From: a bacterium
GTDB taxonomy: Bacteria > Patescibacteriota > Minisyncoccia > Phycocordibacterales > CAIZLB01
DNA: 64,000 nucleotides
Direction of reading: 5' to 3'
NCBI GenBank assembly: GCA_027490575.1
Contig: JAIXXV010000032.1
Location: 13,211 to 77,210 of the forward strand
Both the position numbers and the translations under genes were made by a program. The notes under the pieces are model-generated. The model had not been told where the DNA came from. It saw only the letters and a program-made list of their open reading frames with translations, and ran no database searches. Below, piece by piece: positions 11,449 to 63,764 of the stretch; the first letter of the stretch is position 1, and each line of letters opens with the position of its first letter.

Positions 11449-12249
11449 ATGAGGGGCCGACACTTCTCGCACTCAAATACAATGAAACTCAGTGAAATCA
11501 ACTACCGCTTTACAGTCGAACCTGTATTGAGACTAATCCAATCCATGATGAAAAATGGCAATTACATCACTCCACAGAGCTCAAGCAGAACTCTGTCGAT
11601 GATGTTTTGGCTAAATTCGTCCATACGAAACGAGCTGATGCAATGGACTTTCAAAATTGGTCCATCGTGGCCAGAAGATCCAAATCCTCTAAAATCAATT
11701 ACAGGCGCAATGATTGCATTCATCATTGCATTAGCAGCAGGAGTGGCGCAGTACTTATTTCCAAATTTAGTACCATTTTTGATCATTTTCTTGCCCTCAG
11801 CAGTACTGTGTATTTACTGGACCACACTGTCTTTAGCCGCTGTGGTAGTCAGAATCAAAAAAGCATGCTTTCTTACTGACTTTATCAACATAGTTGGTAC
11901 AATACCGCTAATAAGGAGGCAGCATCTCATAAACCCTGGACATCGTGAAAGTAGCTATGATTACCTTGTCGTGGTGATGCTTTTGCAACAACTCATGAGT
12001 GTTTCCAAAAAGGTCAAAGGTAATACTGAAGACCCGAAGCTAAAAGATGAAGAGAAAAGGCTATATGACTCAGCCTTCAAACTTGGTGTACTAGGAGATG
12101 ACATCTCGGCCGTATACACGTTGGTATATCGGTTGATTGAGGAAAAGGAGCAAGGTAAACCTATAGGATCGGGTCAAAATAGCGGCGGAGATGGAGACGG
12201 CTTTCCAGAACCTGACCCAGACGCACTCCCGACAAGCGTCCTTGGTTAA
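11449..12249 (+). CDS. hypothetical multi-pass membrane protein (alternative start at 11482)
   Basis: 266-aa ORF with several hydrophobic helices; shares a 5' leader motif GAGGGGCCGACA with the preceding gene; C-terminal Gly/Asp-rich tail. Confidence 0.45.
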   Translation: MRGRHFSHSNTMKLSEINYRFTVEPVLRLIQSMMKNGNYITPQSSSRTLSMMFWLNSSIRNELMQWTFKIGPSWPEDPNPLKSITGAMIAFIIALAAGVAQYLFPNLVPFLIIFLPSAVLCIYWTTLSLAAVVVRIKKACFLTDFINIVGTIPLIRRQHLINPGHRESSYDYLVVVMLLQQLMSVSKKVKGNTEDPKLKDEEKRLYDSAFKLGVLGDDISAVYTLVYRLIEEKEQGKPIGSGQNSGGDGDGFPEPDPDALPTSVLG

Positions 12250-12383
12250 AGAGACAACGGAAGAGCGCCTGAGAAATCTGAGTAATAGAACGAGATTCTA
12301 GGACTGTGACCACTGTACCTGATAGCAAAGGTATGGTGGTTTTTTATTTGTAAATTATTAGCACCACCCACCTTTTGCACCCA

Positions 12384-12468
12384 ATTCTTAATCCTTAATT
12401 CTTAATTTGCCGGTTCTGTTAATTCTGCGGGCAATTGTCAATTGCTAATTACTAATTACTAATTGCTC
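12384..12468. repeat. 7-nt periodic low-complexity array (TAATTNN/CAGNTAN family)
   Basis: aattcttaatccttaattcttaat...caattgtcaattgctaattactaattactaattgc; heptad phase CAA/TAA/CAG on the minus strand. Confidence 0.6.
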
Positions 12469-18978: not shown

Positions 18979-19509
18979 CTAAACCAAACTCCCCCACCTC
19001 TCCACATGACACGTATACCCACCTGGATTCTTCTGTAGGTAGTCTTGGTGATAATCCTCAGCTGACCAAAACTTTTTAAATGGTTCTAGTGTAGTGACGA
19101 CTGGATCTTTCCAAAGACCACTTTCATTTACAATCTTTATCATTTTTTCAGCATCTTGTTTTTCTTCTTCATCTTGATAGAAAATTGCGGATCTGTATGA
19201 AGAACCGATATCATTTCCCTGACGATTGACCGTAGTTGGATTATGAATTCTGAAGAAATAATCAAGTATTTTTAAATAACTCGTAACTGCTGGGTCGTAT
19301 GTTATTTCCATTGCCTCAGCGTGCGATTCTGCAGAATCGTGTCGCGCAATGTCCATTGAAGCGCGACCGTGACGCTCGTATGTAGGATTATCATTTTGTC
19401 CACCACTATAACCTACCTCAGAATCAATCACACCTTCTTGCTTTCTAAATAGCTCTTCCATTCCCCAGAAACATCCACCTGCAATATATGCTTTTTTATA
19501 GTTGTTCAT
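18979..19509 (-). CDS. msrA: peptide methionine sulfoxide reductase MsrA
   Basis: GGCFWG active-site motif at the N-terminus; family length. Confidence 0.9.
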
Positions 19510-19545
19510 AATTACTAATTGTTAACTACCAATTGATAATTGCTA
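19510..19545. repeat. 7-nt periodic array abutting the msrA start codon
   Basis: Minus strand reads CAATTAT CAATTGG TAGTTAA CAATTAG TAATT-ATG; fills the entire msrB-msrA intergenic spacer; no Shine-Dalgarno. Confidence 0.55.
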
Positions 19546-27333: not shown

Positions 27334-27334
27334 T

Positions 27335-27391
27335 CAGTTAGCAGGTATCAGATGACAGATATCAGTTGTCAGATAGCAGGTATCAGTTAGG
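27335..27391 (+). repeat. 7-nt periodic CAGNNNN array (8 units)
   Basis: CAGTTAG CAGGTAT CAGATGA CAGATAT CAGTTGT CAGATAG CAGGTAT CAGTTAG directly after the prsW stop, about 55 nt upstream of the hsp20 ATG. Confidence 0.65.
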
Positions 27392-34520: not shown

Positions 34521-34575
34521 TACAGTTATCAGTTAGCAATTAACAGTTAAAGAATTAAGAAATCAATAGTTAATC
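34521..34575. repeat. 7-nt periodic CAGNTAN-family array in the smc 5' leader
   Basis: CAGTTAT CAGTTAG CAATTAA CAGTTAA AGAATTA AGAAATC on the plus strand, adjoining the smc start codon region. Confidence 0.6.
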
Positions 34576-35348: not shown

Positions 35349-35398
35349 TTTGTTAATTCGTATTTATATTTTTGTTTGTTTTTGTCTTTTGTCGGGCC

Positions 35399-35446
35399 AA
35401 CTGTTAACTGCTATCTGATATCTGTCATCTGACACCTGTTAAGCTA
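35399..35446. repeat. 7-nt periodic array (CAG phase on the minus strand)
   Basis: Plus strand CTGTTAA CTGCTAT CTGATAT CTGTCAT CTGACAC CTGTTAA between the nusB-nudix stop and rnc. Confidence 0.6.
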
Positions 35447-36362
35447 CCACGTTCTGTTTTTTAAGCAATATCTGTACCGCCTTCGTAACTATTGGCAAAA
35501 TGTCATTATAAAAATTGAGCGTTAGTAGATCTTTTGCATTAAACCACCTTGCATCTGTTAGTCCTCCACTGGTTCCAAGTGTAAGCGGTATAAAGTCGGA
35601 CTTTGCCAGGTAGTAACAAACTTGCTTTCGAATCTTGCCATCTTCTGGATGAGATGCAATGTACTCATTGTTAGCCAACTCTTCCTCTATCTCAATATCT
35701 ATACCCATCTCCTCCTTAATCTCACGCATGATGCCATCTTTCATATCTTCGTCACCTTCTAATTTACCTTTTGATAGAGTCCAGTGCCCAAAAACATCAT
35801 GAACTAGAGCGAACTGCATCTCACCATCGTGCATGGCATATACCACAGCACCTCCTAGTTTTTGTATTGGCATTTCTTCATAAGGAACTTCCTTTTTCTC
35901 CTTTTTTTGCTTTTTTGTAGAAACCTCCTCCTTTCCTGGCTCGCCCATCTCTTTGTAGACAGCACCGAGTACTCCGTTTACGAACTTGCCGGATGTTTCC
36001 CCTCCGAAAGACTTCGCCAGCTCAATAGCCTCGTTGATGGCCACTTTAGCTGGTACCTCCTTCCTATCGCCAAAAATTAGCTCAAAAAGGCCTATTCTGA
36101 GCACATTTCGATCAACTATCGCAATCTTGGGTATTGGCCACTCAGGAGCTGCTTTTTCAATGATTAGGTCTATTTCAGGGTTCTTTTTAACCACACCATC
36201 TACAATGTTTTTAATAAACGAAAAATCGCCCATACCAGGAGCGAATTCTTCAACATTTCTTTGAACAATTTCACCAACAACAGCAGAGTCTGAAATACCT
36301 CGAAAGTCTCTTTCGAAAAGTGATTGTAGTGCTATTGATCGTGAAAGGTGCCTATTTGCCAT
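35439..36362 (-). CDS. nusB: NusB (transcription antitermination factor) fused to a C-terminal NUDIX hydrolase domain
   Basis: N-terminal about 140 aa NusB (KVAINEAIELAKSFGGETSGKFVNGVLGAV, near-identical to the E. coli NusB core), a Lys/Glu-rich linker, then Nudix box GHWTLSKGKLEGDEDMKDGIMREIKEEMGI. Confidence 0.8.
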   Translation of the reverse strand: MANRHLSRSIALQSLFERDFRGISDSAVVGEIVQRNVEEFAPGMGDFSFIKNIVDGVVKKNPEIDLIIEKAAPEWPIPKIAIVDRNVLRIGLFELIFGDRKEVPAKVAINEAIELAKSFGGETSGKFVNGVLGAVYKEMGEPGKEEVSTKKQKKEKKEVPYEEMPIQKLGGAVVYAMHDGEMQFALVHDVFGHWTLSKGKLEGDEDMKDGIMREIKEEMGIDIEIEEELANNEYIASHPEDGKIRKQVCYYLAKSDFIPLTLGTSGGLTDARWFNAKDLLTLNFYNDILPIVTKAVQILLKKQNVVA

Positions 36363-44817: not shown

Positions 44818-46161
44818 TTAACCGATAATCCCCTTTTTCAACATGTTTTGTCTTTTGAATTCAGCAATTCTATTGTCGATACTTGGTTTGTTGTATTTGT
44901 AGAATGCATAACCAGCGATCGAACTCCACAGTATCATTGCCAATGTTATAACTATCATCTTTGGACCAAAGTCTATACCTGTTGCAGGTACTTGGTTTAG
45001 GAATACTCCAGATACAGGTACACCAGTTACAGGTGTTTGATCTCTGATAACTGTTACGTTAGAAGCTACAGTGTTTGCAAAGATGGTTGTAGCACAAGTA
45101 GCGCTTACACTTTGACCATTTACAAATGCAGTAACACTCGCTGTCTTGTATCCAGGTATGTTGTAAGATCTAGTTAACTGAGCAGAATTTCCGAAAAGTC
45201 CATCAGTTCCTGACCAGTTGTATGAAGTTGCACCCCAGATATTTCCATTTACATACATAGTCCATGTAACGTTTTGGTTTATGAATGCAGTTGCAGGTGT
45301 AGCTACACAGTAAGCTCCGATAGGATTTACAGGTGGTACATAAGTGTCTTGTATAAGAACATTACATGATCTAGTGATTGATTGATTACCAGATGTGATA
45401 GTTACATAAGCTGTCTTGTATCCAAGTGATGCAAATCTTCCCGTAAATGATTGACCTGATGCACTTATACCATCACTTCCTGACCATACGTATGTGTAGT
45501 TTCCAGAACCTCCAGAAGCAGTTGCCATGAAAGTTAGGTTTTGATTAACAAATGCAGTTGAAGGACTAATGATACAGTTACCATTTAGAGTAGGTTCGGA
45601 AGGAGTGTTTGTATTTGAACCACCGCCACCTAGTACAACTAGACTGATGTTGTTGTTGTTTACAGGGTTAAATGTGTTTGAGTTGTTGTTTGTTGCACTA
45701 GCTGTACTGTTGTTTGTGTTAGTGTTTGTATTTCTGTTGGTATTTGTGTTTGTATTAGTATTTGAAGTATATACATACGAAAGCTGAGGGGCAGGTGTAA
45801 ATCCAAAACCTCCTCCACCACCTACATTGTTGTAGACATATCTTTGAGCTGGGGCCGCAACGAATCCTCCACCTACACGGTTTTGAACAGGTTGTACGTA
45901 TCTTTGCGTAGGGGCTGAAAATACAGGGTTTGAATATGTTGTATTCAATCTATATCCTGAAGAAGGACTTGAGTATACAGGGTTAGAGTAAGTTGTATTC
46001 AATCTATACCCAGAACCCGTTGTTCCAACACCTGACAAGCCAGAGCTTGTTTTAGATGCAAAAGTAACTCCTGGAAACAGCGTCACAGAAGAGACCAAAA
46101 TGGCTAGAAATATGAATTTCCCCGCTTTTTGTAGACTTTTTATATTTGTAATTGTTTTCAT
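44818..46161 (-). CDS. secreted repetitive surface protein with a C-terminal VPATG-type sorting-like signal
   Basis: Signal peptide; SGYRLNTTYSNPV x2; (TN)n run; two repeated beta-rich modules (SGGSGNYTYVWSGSDG/GYKTA); C-terminal PVSGVFLNQVPATG + TM + basic tail. Confidence 0.6.
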   Translation of the reverse strand: MKTITNIKSLQKAGKFIFLAILVSSVTLFPGVTFASKTSSGLSGVGTTGSGYRLNTTYSNPVYSSPSSGYRLNTTYSNPVFSAPTQRYVQPVQNRVGGGFVAAPAQRYVYNNVGGGGGFGFTPAPQLSYVYTSNTNTNTNTNRNTNTNTNNSTASATNNNSNTFNPVNNNNISLVVLGGGGSNTNTPSEPTLNGNCIISPSTAFVNQNLTFMATASGGSGNYTYVWSGSDGISASGQSFTGRFASLGYKTAYVTITSGNQSITRSCNVLIQDTYVPPVNPIGAYCVATPATAFINQNVTWTMYVNGNIWGATSYNWSGTDGLFGNSAQLTRSYNIPGYKTASVTAFVNGQSVSATCATTIFANTVASNVTVIRDQTPVTGVPVSGVFLNQVPATGIDFGPKMIVITLAMILWSSIAGYAFYKYNKPSIDNRIAEFKRQNMLKKGIIG

Positions 46162-56920: not shown

Positions 56921-56966
56921 TAATTCTTAATTGCTATCTGATAACTGTTATCTGCTACCTGTAACC
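56921..56966. repeat. 7-nt periodic array abutting the methyltransferase start codon
   Basis: Minus strand ACAGGTA GCAGATA ACAGTTA TCAGATA GCAATTA AGAATTA-ATG; no Shine-Dalgarno. Confidence 0.6.
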
Positions 56967-60080: not shown

Positions 60081-60656
60081 CTATAATTTACGTATAACCG
60101 CTTTAACTACAGCAGCAATTTTGAGGTCATACTCAGGGTATATATTTTTAAATTTTTTATTTGCCGGTTCAAGGTATATCTGACCTTTTTTATCTCTCCT
60201 AAAATACTTCATCGTCCAACCTCCGTCGACTTCTGCGATTACAATATCTCCCACCTTTGCATTTTCAGTTCTCTCAACAAGAACAAGGTCACCTTCAGCT
60301 ATGTGAGCTTCTATCATTGATTCCCCTTTCACTTCGAGCATATACGTTGAGCCTTTTGTACCTTCCAAAAGGAGCTCGTCTATAGAAGTAGAATCAAGTA
60401 CATCTTCTTCTGCCACTGTTGGCATACCAGCTTCTACTAGTCCAAGTAAAGGAATCTCATTTGAAAGCTTTTGGGGTGTAAGCTTGCCCCTCGAGTCCTT
60501 GTTGAATACACCTTCCTCTACAAGTTTGTTAATGAGTTTATAGACAGCATTTTTGGACTTGAATCCAAGCATATCCATAATCTCATTATACCCAGGCACA
60601 CGCCTATTGGTCTTATAGAAATTAAGTATTTTTTGTTTGTAATCTTGGTAAGTCAT
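60081..60656 (-). CDS. lexA: LexA repressor
   Basis: N-terminal winged HTH; S24 peptidase domain with an Ala-Gly-like cleavage region (VEAGMPT), GESM catalytic Ser and a downstream Lys. Confidence 0.85.
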   Translation of the reverse strand: MTYQDYKQKILNFYKTNRRVPGYNEIMDMLGFKSKNAVYKLINKLVEEGVFNKDSRGKLTPQKLSNEIPLLGLVEAGMPTVAEEDVLDSTSIDELLLEGTKGSTYMLEVKGESMIEAHIAEGDLVLVERTENAKVGDIVIAEVDGGWTMKYFRRDKKGQIYLEPANKKFKNIYPEYDLKIAAVVKAVIRKL

Positions 60657-60662
60657 TTTTTG

Positions 60663-60755
60663 CAGTTATCAGGTGGTGGTTAGCAGATATCAGGTATCAG
60701 ATGACAGATATCAGGTATCAGGTATCAGGTATCAGATGACAGATATCAGGTATCC
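60663..60755 (+). repeat. 7-nt periodic CAGNNNN array (13 units) in the lexA leader
   Basis: CAGTTAT CAGGTGG TGGTTAG CAGATAT CAGGTAT CAGATGA CAGATAT CAGGTAT CAGGTAT CAGGTAT CAGATGA CAGATAT CAGGTAT, beginning 7 nt upstream of the lexA ATG. Confidence 0.7.
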
Positions 60756-61037
60756 ATTAAATGCTAATGCTTAGATGCTGGAGTCTATTAAAACATGAAT
60801 GAGGCGAGTGAGAATGTTCTAGCTAATGAAGCCTCACTTTCAAGTCTTCTCAATTGTAGCATGAGGTTCTTATGCTTTCGAGATTCCTTTTCATATGATT
60901 CTCCTTTTATGATTTTAAAATCTATTCTTTTGTTGATTGAGTTAAGCTCTCTTCTTATTGCAAACATAATTGTCATTTTTCTCATGGTATTTATTTTGTT
61001 ATTTTTTAATGTTCTTTGTCTTTCCTTGTATGTTTAT

Positions 61038-61066
61038 ATAATAGGTGAACTATAGTTCACTGTCAA
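61038..61066 (-). promoter_or_regulatory. consensus promoter TTGACA-17-TATTAT (minus strand) with a GAAC-N4-GTTC LexA/Cheo-type box in the spacer
   Basis: Minus strand TTTGACA-GTGAACTATAGTTCACC-TATTAT; the 16-bp perfect palindrome GTGAACTATAGTTCAC (61045-61060) fits the Gram-positive SOS box GAAC-N4-GTTC. Confidence 0.55.
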
Positions 61067-61100
61067 ACATTTAGTATAAAAATACTGTGGATAAGTCTTA

Positions 61101-61147
61101 AACAGATAACAGTTGGTAATTATCAGGTGACAGTTAGCAGTTAGGTG
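61101..61147 (+). repeat. 7-nt periodic CAGNNNN array
   Basis: CAGATAA CAGTTGG TAATTAT CAGGTGA CAGTTAG CAGTTAG overlapping the helicase stop codon region. Confidence 0.55.
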
Positions 61148-62615: not shown

Positions 62616-63764
62616 CTAACCCTGCATCTTCTTTTTTGTCTTTTGTTGTTGCATTAGTTTAAATGCAGTAGCTATGTCTGAAACAGAGGCTTGTGCATTG
62701 GCACTAGATGATACAGTTGACGCATCAGACGCATTTGAGAAAGACACGAGTCTCTGATTTCCAAATGAGTAATATTTATGGAATACAAGTGCACCCAGTA
62801 AACTACTTAGCATTAAGCCCGTAAGCAAGATTGCGCTTTTTACGCCAGGAGTTACTCCTGTTGCAGGAACTTGGTTTAGGAATACACCCGAGACCGGCTG
62901 TCCAGAAACACCAGAAGTGTACTGGTACGTAGGTTGAACATAAGTATAAGTAGTCGGTTGTGTATATACAGGTTGTGTATATGTTTGTTGGTAGTTGTAG
63001 TCGTAAGGATAATAGTATTGATTTGGATTTTGATATTGCCAATTCCAAGTTTGATTTTGCCAAGTATTGTTCCAACTACTATTATTCCAGCCATTATTCC
63101 ATGTATTGTTCCAATTATTATTCCAGTTGTTATTTGTTCCATAACCAACTTGTACAAATAAACTTGCACAAGAAGTATTATTAAATGATGAGCAAATTGT
63201 GTAAGACATTGTACCTAATTGATTACCTGTAACTGTTATCTGGCTACCACTTATATAAGCACTAGCAATACTTGAGTTATTGTTATTTGAAATAAAATAT
63301 CCTCCGCCAGTACCTGAGATATTTACAGATTGAGTTTGCCCCACATTCAGAGTAAGACTTGTCTGACTTAAGCTTATGGTTTGATTATTCCATGTTCCAC
63401 CTGTCACATTGACCTGAAGCGTTGCACAAGGAGCCATAGACGCTTGCGAACATATAGTTAGACTTGATGTTCCTTGAGATAGACCTTGAACTTGCACTAG
63501 TCCACTTGATGATCCTGCACTTACCACGGTACTGTTTGAGTTTGCTGATACGTAGTAGTTACCTGATCCACCTGACACATTTACAGTAACTGTTTGACCT
63601 GAGTTTATATTTATAAATGACTGACTAAGATATATTGGTCCGTAGTAAGGGGTTGACTGTGCACTAGCAAAACCACCTGGCACCAAAAAAGATAGTGCAG
63701 ATAGGCATACTGAAACTGCGAAAATGGTGCTTTTTATAGCTATTTTTTTAGATATATTTGTCAT
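62616..63764 (-). CDS. secreted surface protein with Ig-like repeats, an Asn/Trp-rich repeat region and a C-terminal VPATG-type signal
   Basis: Signal peptide; two homologous beta-rich modules; (WNN)n tract; C-terminal GVSGQPVSGVFLNQVPATG + TM helix + about 50-aa tail. Confidence 0.6.
   Translation of the reverse strand: MTNISKKIAIKSTIFAVSVCLSALSFLVPGGFASAQSTPYYGPIYLSQSFININSGQTVTVNVSGGSGNYYVSANSNSTVVSAGSSSGLVQVQGLSQGTSSLTICSQASMAPCATLQVNVTGGTWNNQTISLSQTSLTLNVGQTQSVNISGTGGGYFISNNNNSSIASAYISGSQITVTGNQLGTMSYTICSSFNNTSCASLFVQVGYGTNNNWNNNWNNTWNNGWNNSSWNNTWQNQTWNWQYQNPNQYYYPYDYNYQQTYTQPVYTQPTTYTYVQPTYQYTSGVSGQPVSGVFLNQVPATGVTPGVKSAILLTGLMLSSLLGALVFHKYYSFGNQRLVSFSNASDASTVSSSANAQASVSDIATAFKLMQQQKTKKKMQG

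Follow-up and report, generated by a model that had tools for sequence, protein, structure and literature searches.

Locus and operon context

We analyzed a 64,000-nt stretch of contig JAIXXV010000032.1 (hereafter, the window) from a metagenome-assembled genome (MAG) of the Patescibacteria (Paceibacterota/Parcubacteria), ultrasmall bacteria of the candidate phyla radiation, focusing on a tandem array of 7-nt units (heptads) at positions 60663-60755, adjacent to a gene for a LexA-like protein. An earlier note, made from the sequence alone, had considered this array as the longest of at least eight, dispersed between the genes of the window with a strict 7-nt period. Read on the plus strand, it starts with CAGTTAT CAGGTGG TGGTTAG and continues with ten unbroken units of the CAGATAT, CAGGTAT and CAGATGA types. 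The length of 13 units that was originally assigned to it is reached if two degenerate units are included, whereas the unbroken run (60684-60753) comprises ten. Tandem Repeats Finder detected within the array a 35-nt (5-unit) block that is present twice with 97% identity.

On the minus strand, the features are arranged in the following order: a PIF1-like helicase gene, a second array (61101-61147), a DnaA box, a promoter, a conserved 65-residue open reading frame (ORF), the longest array and lexA, with six bases left between the latter two (Table 1). The 65-residue ORF differs from each of its four relatives by 3-16 synonymous and only 0-1 non-synonymous codons. Since the differences are nearly all synonymous, it is a real gene, whose product is strongly constrained and possibly SOS-related. 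No Pfam family is assigned to its L005 orthologue in the public pipeline annotation. An 86-residue ORF listed at 60795-61055 on the plus strand is probably spurious. The promoter spacer holds the palindrome GTGAACTATAGTTCAC, which resembles a LexA box and has the form GAAC-N4-GTTC, that of the Gram-positive-type LexA box. Both promoter and palindrome are conserved in three lineages. A promoter combined with a LexA-box-like palindrome implies an autoregulated SOS control in this Patescibacteria genome. The longest array had been placed in the lexA leader. It does lie upstream of lexA, but as a spacer between the 65-residue ORF and lexA. In other words, it is an intercistronic spacer inside an SOS-type operon and not a promoter-proximal leader.

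Heptad arrays form a dispersed intergenic family

At all eight loci the sequence agrees with the initial description and shows a strict 7-nt register with the consensus C-A-G-D-T-R-D. To estimate significance, we ran the proposed regular expression (CAG[AGT]T[AG][TGA]){3,} against the window and against 200 dinucleotide-preserving shuffles. It matched five times in the window (27335-27390, 60684-60753 and 61124-61144 on the plus strand, 35397-35438 and 56934-56961 on the minus strand) and not once in the shuffles. A looser pattern, ([CT]A[GA]NT[AG]N){3,}, recovered exactly the same eight loci and no others in the 64-kb window (11 strand-hits versus a shuffle mean of 0.2). Tandem Repeats Finder called period 7 at 12383, 12440, 27334, 34522 and 60684, and a lag-7 self-similarity scan of the window agrees with period-7 direct repeats. 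All eight loci are outside ORFs. The dispersed arrays are real and occur far above chance; period calls, pattern matches and positions relative to ORFs all uphold the notion of an intergenic family with a strict 7-nt period. The arrays are also not an artefact of one assembly, because four independent assemblies are 100% identical over 24656-45348. Identity of 100% was also seen between the window and contigs of NCBI assembly GCA_027484805.1 and several Logan assemblies. Nevertheless, two short-read contigs end within the lexA array, which is only suggestive of length heterogeneity.

The unit profile (n = 47) is C 85%, A 96%, G 89%, D, T 89%, A 77% or G 23%, and D (never C). The motif CAG-D-T-R-K put forward at first is therefore close to the observed one, except that the last position is D and not strictly K. 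The view that all arrays are built of CAG units required a similar adjustment. Five loci are of the clean CAG type, while the other three contain AATT-core or degenerate units. The arrays at 12384-12468 and 19510-19545 consist of AATT-core units (CAATTAG / AATTACT); the one at 34521-34575 is regular for four units and then becomes degenerate, with AATT-core units in its tail (AAGAATT is another example from these three sites). We consider AATT-core and CAG units to be one family because they are mixed in single arrays (the array at 56921 ends with CAGATAG CAATTAA GAATTA) and because they are interchanged at orthologous sites in a sister species. Overall, some 20 unit variants, all drawn from one shared repertoire, are combined into mosaic arrays, in which CAGGTAT (seven copies), CAGTTAG and CAGATAT (five each) and CAGTTAT (three) are accompanied by others.

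Placement of the arrays

As anticipated, spacers between co-directional genes are the main site of the arrays (seven of the eight; Table 1), and both orientations relative to genes are found. The mRNA sense strand is of the CAG type at four loci (19510, 27335, 35397 and 56921) and of the CTG or TAACTG type at three (34521, 60663 and 61101). Chromosomal orientation is likewise mixed within a few kilobases. The distance to a start codon is 0-6 nt for four arrays. Two others (27335 and 35397) start at the stop codon of the preceding gene and leave 50-57 nt to the next start. The array at 60663-60755 has no inverted partner array within 3.7 kb; rnc, on the other hand, is flanked by arrays of inverted orientation (34521 and 35397). 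Stop codons occur in all three sense frames in five of the six array-bearing co-directional spacers, and in two frames in the 52-nt methyltransferase spacer. We rejected all-frame stops as a defining property of the arrays, since they are not distinctive in AT-rich spacers.

Table 1. Heptad arrays and features of the lexA region in the window, spacer lengths at the lexA site, and inverted array pairs at other Paceibacteria loci
Feature	Position	Strand	Description
Longest heptad array	60663..60755	+	CAG-type on +; TAYCTGA-type on operon sense (-) strand; ends 6 nt before lexA ATG
Unbroken core of longest array, 10 units	60684-60753	+	Includes 35-nt block duplicated once
Heptad array, 6 units	61101..61147	+	Between PIF1-like helicase stop and DnaA box/promoter of small-ORF/lexA operon
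Heptad array	56921..56966	-	Abuts methyltransferase ATG (start 56920); CAG-type on mRNA sense; ends CAATTAA GAATTA
Heptad array	35397..35446	-	Directly after nusB-NUDIX stop (35439), 50 nt upstream of rnc start; CAG-type sense
Heptad array	34521..34575	+	Just upstream of smc ATG (34515, public gene call); TAACTG-type on sense (-) strand
Heptad array, 8 units	27335..27391	+	1 nt past PrsW stop, 57 nt upstream of HSP20 start; CAG-type sense
AATT-core array, 5 units, CAATTAG-type	19510..19545	-	Whole spacer of two co-directional genes; abuts ATG at 19509
Two AATT-core sub-arrays (AATTCTT x3; CAATTGY/TAATTAC x5)	12384..12468	.	Between convergent genes
LexA-like gene	60081..60656	-	191 aa, Peptidase_S24 domain; close relatives named 'repressor LexA' in sources
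Conserved 65-aa ORF	60788..60985	-	MRKMTIMFAIRRELNSINKRIDFKIIKGESYEKESRKHKNLMLQLRRLESEASLARTFSLASFMF; upstream of lexA, same transcription unit
Sigma-70-like promoter	61038..61066	-	TTGACA-17-TATTAT, 11/12 matches; spacer holds palindrome GTGAACTATAGTTCAC
Perfect DnaA box	61086-61094	-	TTATCCACA; ~20 nt upstream of lexA-operon -35 hexamer
Small ORF-lexA spacer, window			131 nt
Small ORF-lexA spacer, L005/L006			79 nt
Small ORF-lexA spacer, L091			67 nt
Small ORF-lexA spacer, L008			45 nt
Small ORF-lexA spacer, L090			38 nt
Inverted array pair, L018	17104-17219		
Inverted array pair, L028	8554-8656		
Inverted array pair, L035	5090-5259		
Inverted array pair, L058	7527-7621		
Inverted array pair, L062	2411-2509		
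Inverted array pair, L078	1053-1156		
Inverted array pair, L081	8636-8778		
Inverted array pair, L005	1219-1391		

The DnaA box upstream of the lexA operon, TTATCCACA, is the only perfect one in the window, and the sister lineages L005 and L008 have conserved it. Elsewhere in the window, boxes with one mismatch are no more frequent than expected by chance. A nearby replication origin was rejected on these two grounds, and the box is probably a regulatory site rather than oriC.

Several further features were noticed. An intrinsic-terminator-like hairpin (GACCACTGTACC...GGTATGGTGGT followed by TTTTTTATTT, ~12300-12345) is located 3' of the gene at 11449-12249 and immediately precedes the AATT-core arrays of 12384-12468. 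Tandem repeats with periods of 12, 18 and 24 nt are present at 45703-45764 and 63065-63134, within minus-strand ORFs (44818-46161 and 62616-63764, respectively), and probably encode repetitive peptide segments of surface-type proteins. The nusB gene next to rnc (35439-36362, minus strand) codes for a 307-residue fusion protein with a NUDIX hydrolase domain C-terminal to NusB; the fusion is kept in the sister species.

Turnover among strains and sister species

To follow the evolution of the lexA spacer, we compared lineages whose LexA is at least 90% identical. Spacer length varies considerably among them (Table 1), corresponding to approximately 5 to 13 units, and the spacers of L008 and L090 differ by exactly one unit (7 nt). 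The 3' end of the spacer (ATAACTG CCAACTG TAAA ATG) is common to L005, L008 and L090, whereas its 5' part has been reshuffled. In L092 the same site is occupied by a 72-nt non-repetitive spacer, free of any array. Thus, the lexA site displays copy-number polymorphism in unit steps with conserved flanks, as is characteristic of variable-number tandem repeats (VNTRs). Contigs carrying the window's own proteins were discarded as a source of strain variation: L001-L004 do not differ at all (100% identity), and the beginning of L094 simply falls within the array.

The sister species, represented by a 771,708-bp Joint Genome Institute (JGI) contig (3300071654 Ga0620614_000016) with ~82% DNA identity to the window, made it possible to compare other sites. 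The PrsW/HSP20 and nusB/rnc spacers contain arrays in both species, made of CAG-type units in the window and of AAGAATT in the sister. At rnc/smc, the window carries an array as a 66-nt insertion that the sister lacks. The array next to the methyltransferase gene has a conserved 3' end, but in the sister it exceeds that of the window by 8 nt (about one unit). At three orthologous sites around lexA, the presence and orientation of arrays are kept in the two species, but the sequence, order and number of units are not. Three lineages have preserved an array immediately 5' of the DnaA box and lexA promoter. Taken together, these comparisons show that copy number, unit order and unit type change fast from one close relative to the next, against a background of conserved flanking genes.

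L008 deserves a separate mention. Its LexA protein is the same as in L005, yet the upstream neighbourhood is different and includes a perfect (AAGAATT)x4 array (1-35) and an inverted AATTCTT-type array (~120-150), about 90 nt apart. This arrangement shows rearrangement at array-bearing spacers.

Period-7 arrays in other Paceibacteria and in viral contigs

The arrays are not confined to the window, as the orthologous sites of the sister species already indicate. We retrieved 80 loci with the window's RNase III protein, and all of them turned out to be Patescibacteria MAGs (labeled Paceibacterota, Parcubacteria, Kaiserbacteria, Nomurabacteria and similar). The self-similarity scan was then extended to 1.27 Mb from 82 Paceibacteria loci, with 107.5 kb classed as intergenic by crude ORF calls. 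It detected 53 intergenic arrays at lag 7 compared to 5, 3, 3, 1, 1 and 1 at lags 4, 5, 6, 8, 9 and 12, respectively, and 26 of the 82 loci have at least one lag-7 array. Units vary between species and partly between loci (for example, TAGGTAT, CAGCTAY, AAGCTAG, CAAGTAT, CAGTTTA, GTAGTAC and ATACTAT), and many different units are found also within single genomes across the clade. The special feature of the clade is therefore period 7 and not any one sequence.

Spacers holding two inverted arrays (Table 1) are found in many species and, in one case, in the sister species; these arrays form imperfect hairpins of 30-40 bp with z-scores from -5 to -10. Such pairs often surround a GC-rich terminator-like stem and stop 2-9 nt before the next ATG, and their units again differ between species. 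The window arrays, in contrast, are mostly solitary.

In IMG/VR, 64 putative viral contigs (L095-L158), some of them giant-virus MAGs, contain at least five perfect CAGNTAN units. All the arrays inspected in these contigs are homogeneous, unlike the mosaics of the window, and CAGTTAT (equivalent to TAACTGA) is by far their commonest unit.

Shine-Dalgarno usage and RNA structure

A strong Shine-Dalgarno (SD) 5-mer precedes ~11% of the window genes and ~5% of the genes across the 80 Paceibacteria loci, the latter value being equal to the intragenic background. In many cases the ATG is preceded at 6-10 nt by a TATAAT-like box, so that leaderless or short-leader mRNAs may be widespread. An SD-like motif is absent before all four genes whose start abuts an array, as it is before ~89% of the window genes. 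A link between array presence and SD usage among species was rejected, because all loci are equally SD-poor.

Folding of the sense-strand RNA gave z-scores of -1.24 for the lexA spacer, -0.56 for the spacer at 27334 and -0.57 for that at 35349. Small hairpins (z of about -3.6) were found only at the short spacers 56921 and 19510. RNA structure was accordingly dismissed as the point of the window arrays, given that the long arrays reach only -0.6 to -1.2. An Rfam search of the window returned two tRNAs and no other RNA family. We also considered autoregulation of RNase III through inverted arrays around rnc, hinted at by the window and by L039. However, 8 of 93 rnc-adjacent spacers carry an array versus 30 of 653 others, an enrichment that is not significant (p = 0.12), and the idea was rejected.

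A sequence- or length-specific reader of the arrays becomes less likely for several reasons: mRNA orientation is mixed, copy number is hypervariable, one unit type takes the place of another between sister species, and in one lineage there is no array at all. The results on orientation, position and structure do not fit a strand-specific reader of defined length and are compatible with a tolerated or tunable spacer.

Relation to known heptanucleotide repeats

The earlier note knew of no described element with a 7-nt period. This turned out to be wrong, as TAACTGA heptamer direct repeats have already been described (PMC4679880). MacGregor (2015) found 169 sets of them in Cand. Maribeggiatoa (BOGUAY), mostly just upstream of start codons lacking a ribosome-binding site (RBS), and reported them also in Thiomargarita, 15 Cyanobacteria and 5 Bacteroidetes, the hosts including Microcystis, 'Nostoc azollae', Cyanothece and Flexibacter (PMC4679880). 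In Microcystis both the heptamers and their orientations are mixed, related heptamers are also mixed in the BOGUAY 'split' sets, and Cyanothece 8801 and 8802 differ by indels in 7-nt steps (PMC4679880). According to Mrazek (2007), as cited in the same paper, heptanucleotides are the commonest long simple repeats in bacteria, for which polymerase slippage was offered as a rationale. Their excess among bacterial long simple sequence repeats (SSRs) has also been described elsewhere (PMC4692102).

The reverse complement of TAACTGA is TCAGTTA, that is, CAGTTAT in another register, and the window units are either this word or its variants differing by one or two bases (CAGTTAT, TATCTGA, TACCTGA and TAACTGY all occur). 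The likeness extends to the head-to-tail arrangement of 7-nt units and to the intergenic location, often a few nucleotides from an SD-less start codon. As in Microcystis, heptamers are mixed within arrays and orientations are mixed relative to genes. As in the two Cyanothece strains, indels between close strains come in 7-nt steps. There are differences as well. The host is a Patescibacteria MAG, and its phylum is absent from the PMC4679880 host list. The repertoire of the window includes AATT-core units (CAATTAG and AAGAATT), and there is no clear preference for the 'forward' orientation (TAACTGA on mRNA) seen in BOGUAY. The orientation is forward at lexA (6 nt from ATG), at smc and downstream of PIF1, and reverse at 19510, 27335, 35397 and 56921. 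Tandem exact TAACTGA was not found in the window, which contains 15 single TAACTGA/TCAGTTA words. Since the exact unit never occurs in tandem, the arrays are not TAACTGA repeats in the strict sense. By their direct 7-nt repetition, their intergenic location and the lack of an SD before the genes whose start they abut, they are nevertheless the same kind of repeat, closest to the mixed Microcystis type, in a new host phylum. A literature search found no reports of heptad repeats in Patescibacteria, and one on the source assembly accessions was likewise empty.

Dispersed intergenic heptanucleotides of cyanobacteria, the short tandemly repeated repetitive (STRR) sequences, were reportedly described by Mazel et al. 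in 1990, without an assigned function. The window arrays are similarly dispersed and intergenic, with units differing between lineages. They were not assigned to STRR1-3 of heterocystous cyanobacteria because the host is from Patescibacteria, another phylum, and because the units seem to differ from the canonical CCCCAGT, TTGGTCA and CAACAGT. STRR sequences are used for fingerprinting (PMC5088731).

Unit-step changes in copy number, the block duplication and the assembly breaks inside the array are shared with prokaryotic VNTRs and long SSRs, to which the homogeneous CAGNTAN arrays of the 64 IMG/VR contigs are also similar. Classic contingency loci differ in that they switch surface or restriction genes via promoters or reading frames, whereas the window arrays lie between housekeeping cistrons, where the frame is irrelevant, and are mosaics rather than pure repeats. 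In Nostoc PCC 7120, contiguous heptamers (TTTTGAA and GACYAAT) abut or overlap the starts of recF and recO or are located near promoters, and their deletion altered the output of reporter constructs (bioRxiv 10.1101/2022.06.06.494920). The resemblance here is that of arrays at start codons of SOS- or DNA-repair-linked genes with a poor SD. The units and the organism are different, and the Nostoc effect is known from reporter constructs only.

Other known systems could be set aside. The initial distinction from repetitive extragenic palindromic (REP) sequences and bacterial interspersed mosaic elements (BIMEs) holds, as the arrays are direct repeats rather than imperfect palindromes of 20-40 nt with a stable hairpin, and the long ones fold weakly. 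So does the distinction from clustered regularly interspaced short palindromic repeats (CRISPR), considering the 7-nt period and the lack of repeat/spacer alternation. A guide array of the CRISPR or tandem interspaced guide RNA (TIGR) type was rejected, since the arrays have 5-13 units, are spacer-free and occupy eight dispersed sites, and the flanking genes that were scanned are housekeeping ones. Sites of the HutP or TRAP type consist of NAG triplets at fixed spacing in RNA and are read by an oligomeric protein. They were rejected too, because the mRNA carries CAG at four sites but CTG at three, and the copy number at one and the same site runs from ~5 to 13.

Origin and possible role of the arrays

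The explanation that we favour, and consider reasonably probable, is that the arrays are a slippage-driven, hypervariable heptanucleotide family of the microsatellite or VNTR kind, serving at most as a tolerated or tunable spacer in an SD-poor genome. Slipped-strand mispairing and unequal exchange would make arrays grow and shrink in steps of 7 nt or multiples thereof; the one-unit difference between two strains and the duplicated 35-nt block argue for this. Arrays in spacers might persist since changes there would be harmless. In a nearly SD-free genome they would supply weakly structured spacer RNA with stops in most or all frames. At most, they may set the distance between cistrons and tune it through changes in length, without being read as a fixed-length, strand-specific signal. 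The dispensability of the array is supported by the repeat-free lexA spacer of L092.

Several observations weigh against this explanation. Independent slippage at each locus leaves unexplained why unrelated loci have a common unit repertoire, and pure slippage does not account for a new 66-nt array of family-type units at rnc/smc. Slippage would have to be supplemented by some inter-locus copying, by a mutational bias that depends on sequence or by selection acting on the unit. Furthermore, array presence and orientation are kept at the three orthologous sites flanking lexA in two species, and arrays tend to abut start codons at 0-6 nt, both of which hint at some function. Finally, a streamlined genome of ~0.8 Mb with ~88% coding density is expected to purge useless DNA.

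If there is a function, it might be in translation initiation. An array would stand in place of the SD as a standby platform for the ribosome (protein S1) or for an RNA-binding adaptor, such as a Csp-, CsrA-, HutP- or TRAP-like protein reading NAG or CTG triplets every 7 nt. Essentially the same was proposed by MacGregor for TAACTGA repeats, most BOGUAY sets of which are just upstream of RBS-less starts (PMC4679880). The four arrays ending 0-6 nt before start codons of genes that all lack an SD, the SD poverty of the genome and the whole clade, and the changed expression of Nostoc reporters upon heptamer deletion (bioRxiv 10.1101/2022.06.06.494920) all agree with this proposal. However, the four-to-three split between CAG and CTG types on mRNA means that there is no single RNA motif to be read; the arrays at 27335 and 35397 abut the upstream stop, 50-57 nt away from the next start; the number of units at one site ranges from ~5 to 13, one lineage having no array; and most SD-less genes of the window do without one. 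We therefore regard a translation platform as rather unlikely.

Mixed orientation would pose no difficulty for a protein that reads the repeats in double-stranded DNA independently of the direction of transcription, be it nucleoid-associated, an insulator or related to replication or priming. Array orientation is indeed independent of both transcription and chromosome direction, one unit repertoire is common to all loci of the genome, and three lineages retain an array just before the DnaA box and promoter of lexA. Yet a candidate protein was not found. Units differ between loci and, at the same site, between sister species; length is unconstrained and the array may be absent; and single genomes across the clade contain many different units. 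A DNA platform thus seems quite improbable.

Hairpin punctuation, in which inverted array pairs would fold into long imperfect stems in the polycistronic RNA and terminate or stabilise it, or release the downstream cistron through RNase III processing, derives its appeal from the strongly folding pairs of the sister species and other Paceibacteria (z = -5 to -10) and from the inverted arrays that flank rnc in the window (34521 and 35397). We consider it very unlikely, as the window arrays are mostly solitary and weakly structured, the lexA array has no inverted partner within 3.7 kb and the enrichment of arrays next to rnc is not significant. The remaining alternative, a small mobile-element remnant or cargo (like miniature inverted-repeat transposable elements (MITEs), REP or REPIN) or a guide-RNA array (CRISPR or TIGR), can practically be dismissed: the 66-nt presence/absence at rnc/smc, the dispersed intergenic distribution with units differing between species and the known occurrence of TIGR systems in Parcubacteria speak for it, but terminal inverted repeats, target duplications and a constant element length are all absent, a 7-nt period without repeat/spacer alternation is far from the 36-nt dual-spacer units of TIGR arrays, found beside Nop-domain Tas genes, and Rfam recognized only the two tRNAs.

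Implications

A bolder and, in our view, unlikely possibility is that period-7 arrays are an actively maintained, clade-wide intergenic 'punctuation' in SD-free Paceibacteria and, perhaps convergently, in Cyanobacteria, Bacteroidetes and Beggiatoaceae. Arrays would be written between cistrons either by some process that advances in intrinsic steps of 7 nt or by a factor that reads heptads and co-evolves with them. They would then set and tune the re-initiation distance, and inverted pairs would form long hairpins of the RNase III or terminator type that end just before the next start. If this were true, the arrays would be a gene-expression device and not junk microsatellites.

Heptanucleotide tandem repeats are an oddity long noticed in a few bacterial lineages. 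The unit family in a ~0.8-Mb Patescibacteria genome extends their range to a phylum unlisted in the 2015 survey (PMC4679880), and so does the intergenic DNA of many Paceibacteria, where period 7 is roughly ten times as common as other periods. On the practical side, the arrays break short-read assemblies and are potential strain markers. Small, gene-dense genomes with many sequenced strains are good material for studying array turnover and for phylogenetic profiling aimed at a co-occurring factor. Moreover, Paceibacteria now join Cyanobacteria and Bacteroidetes as groups that rarely rely on SD sites, which strengthens a possibly informative correlation.

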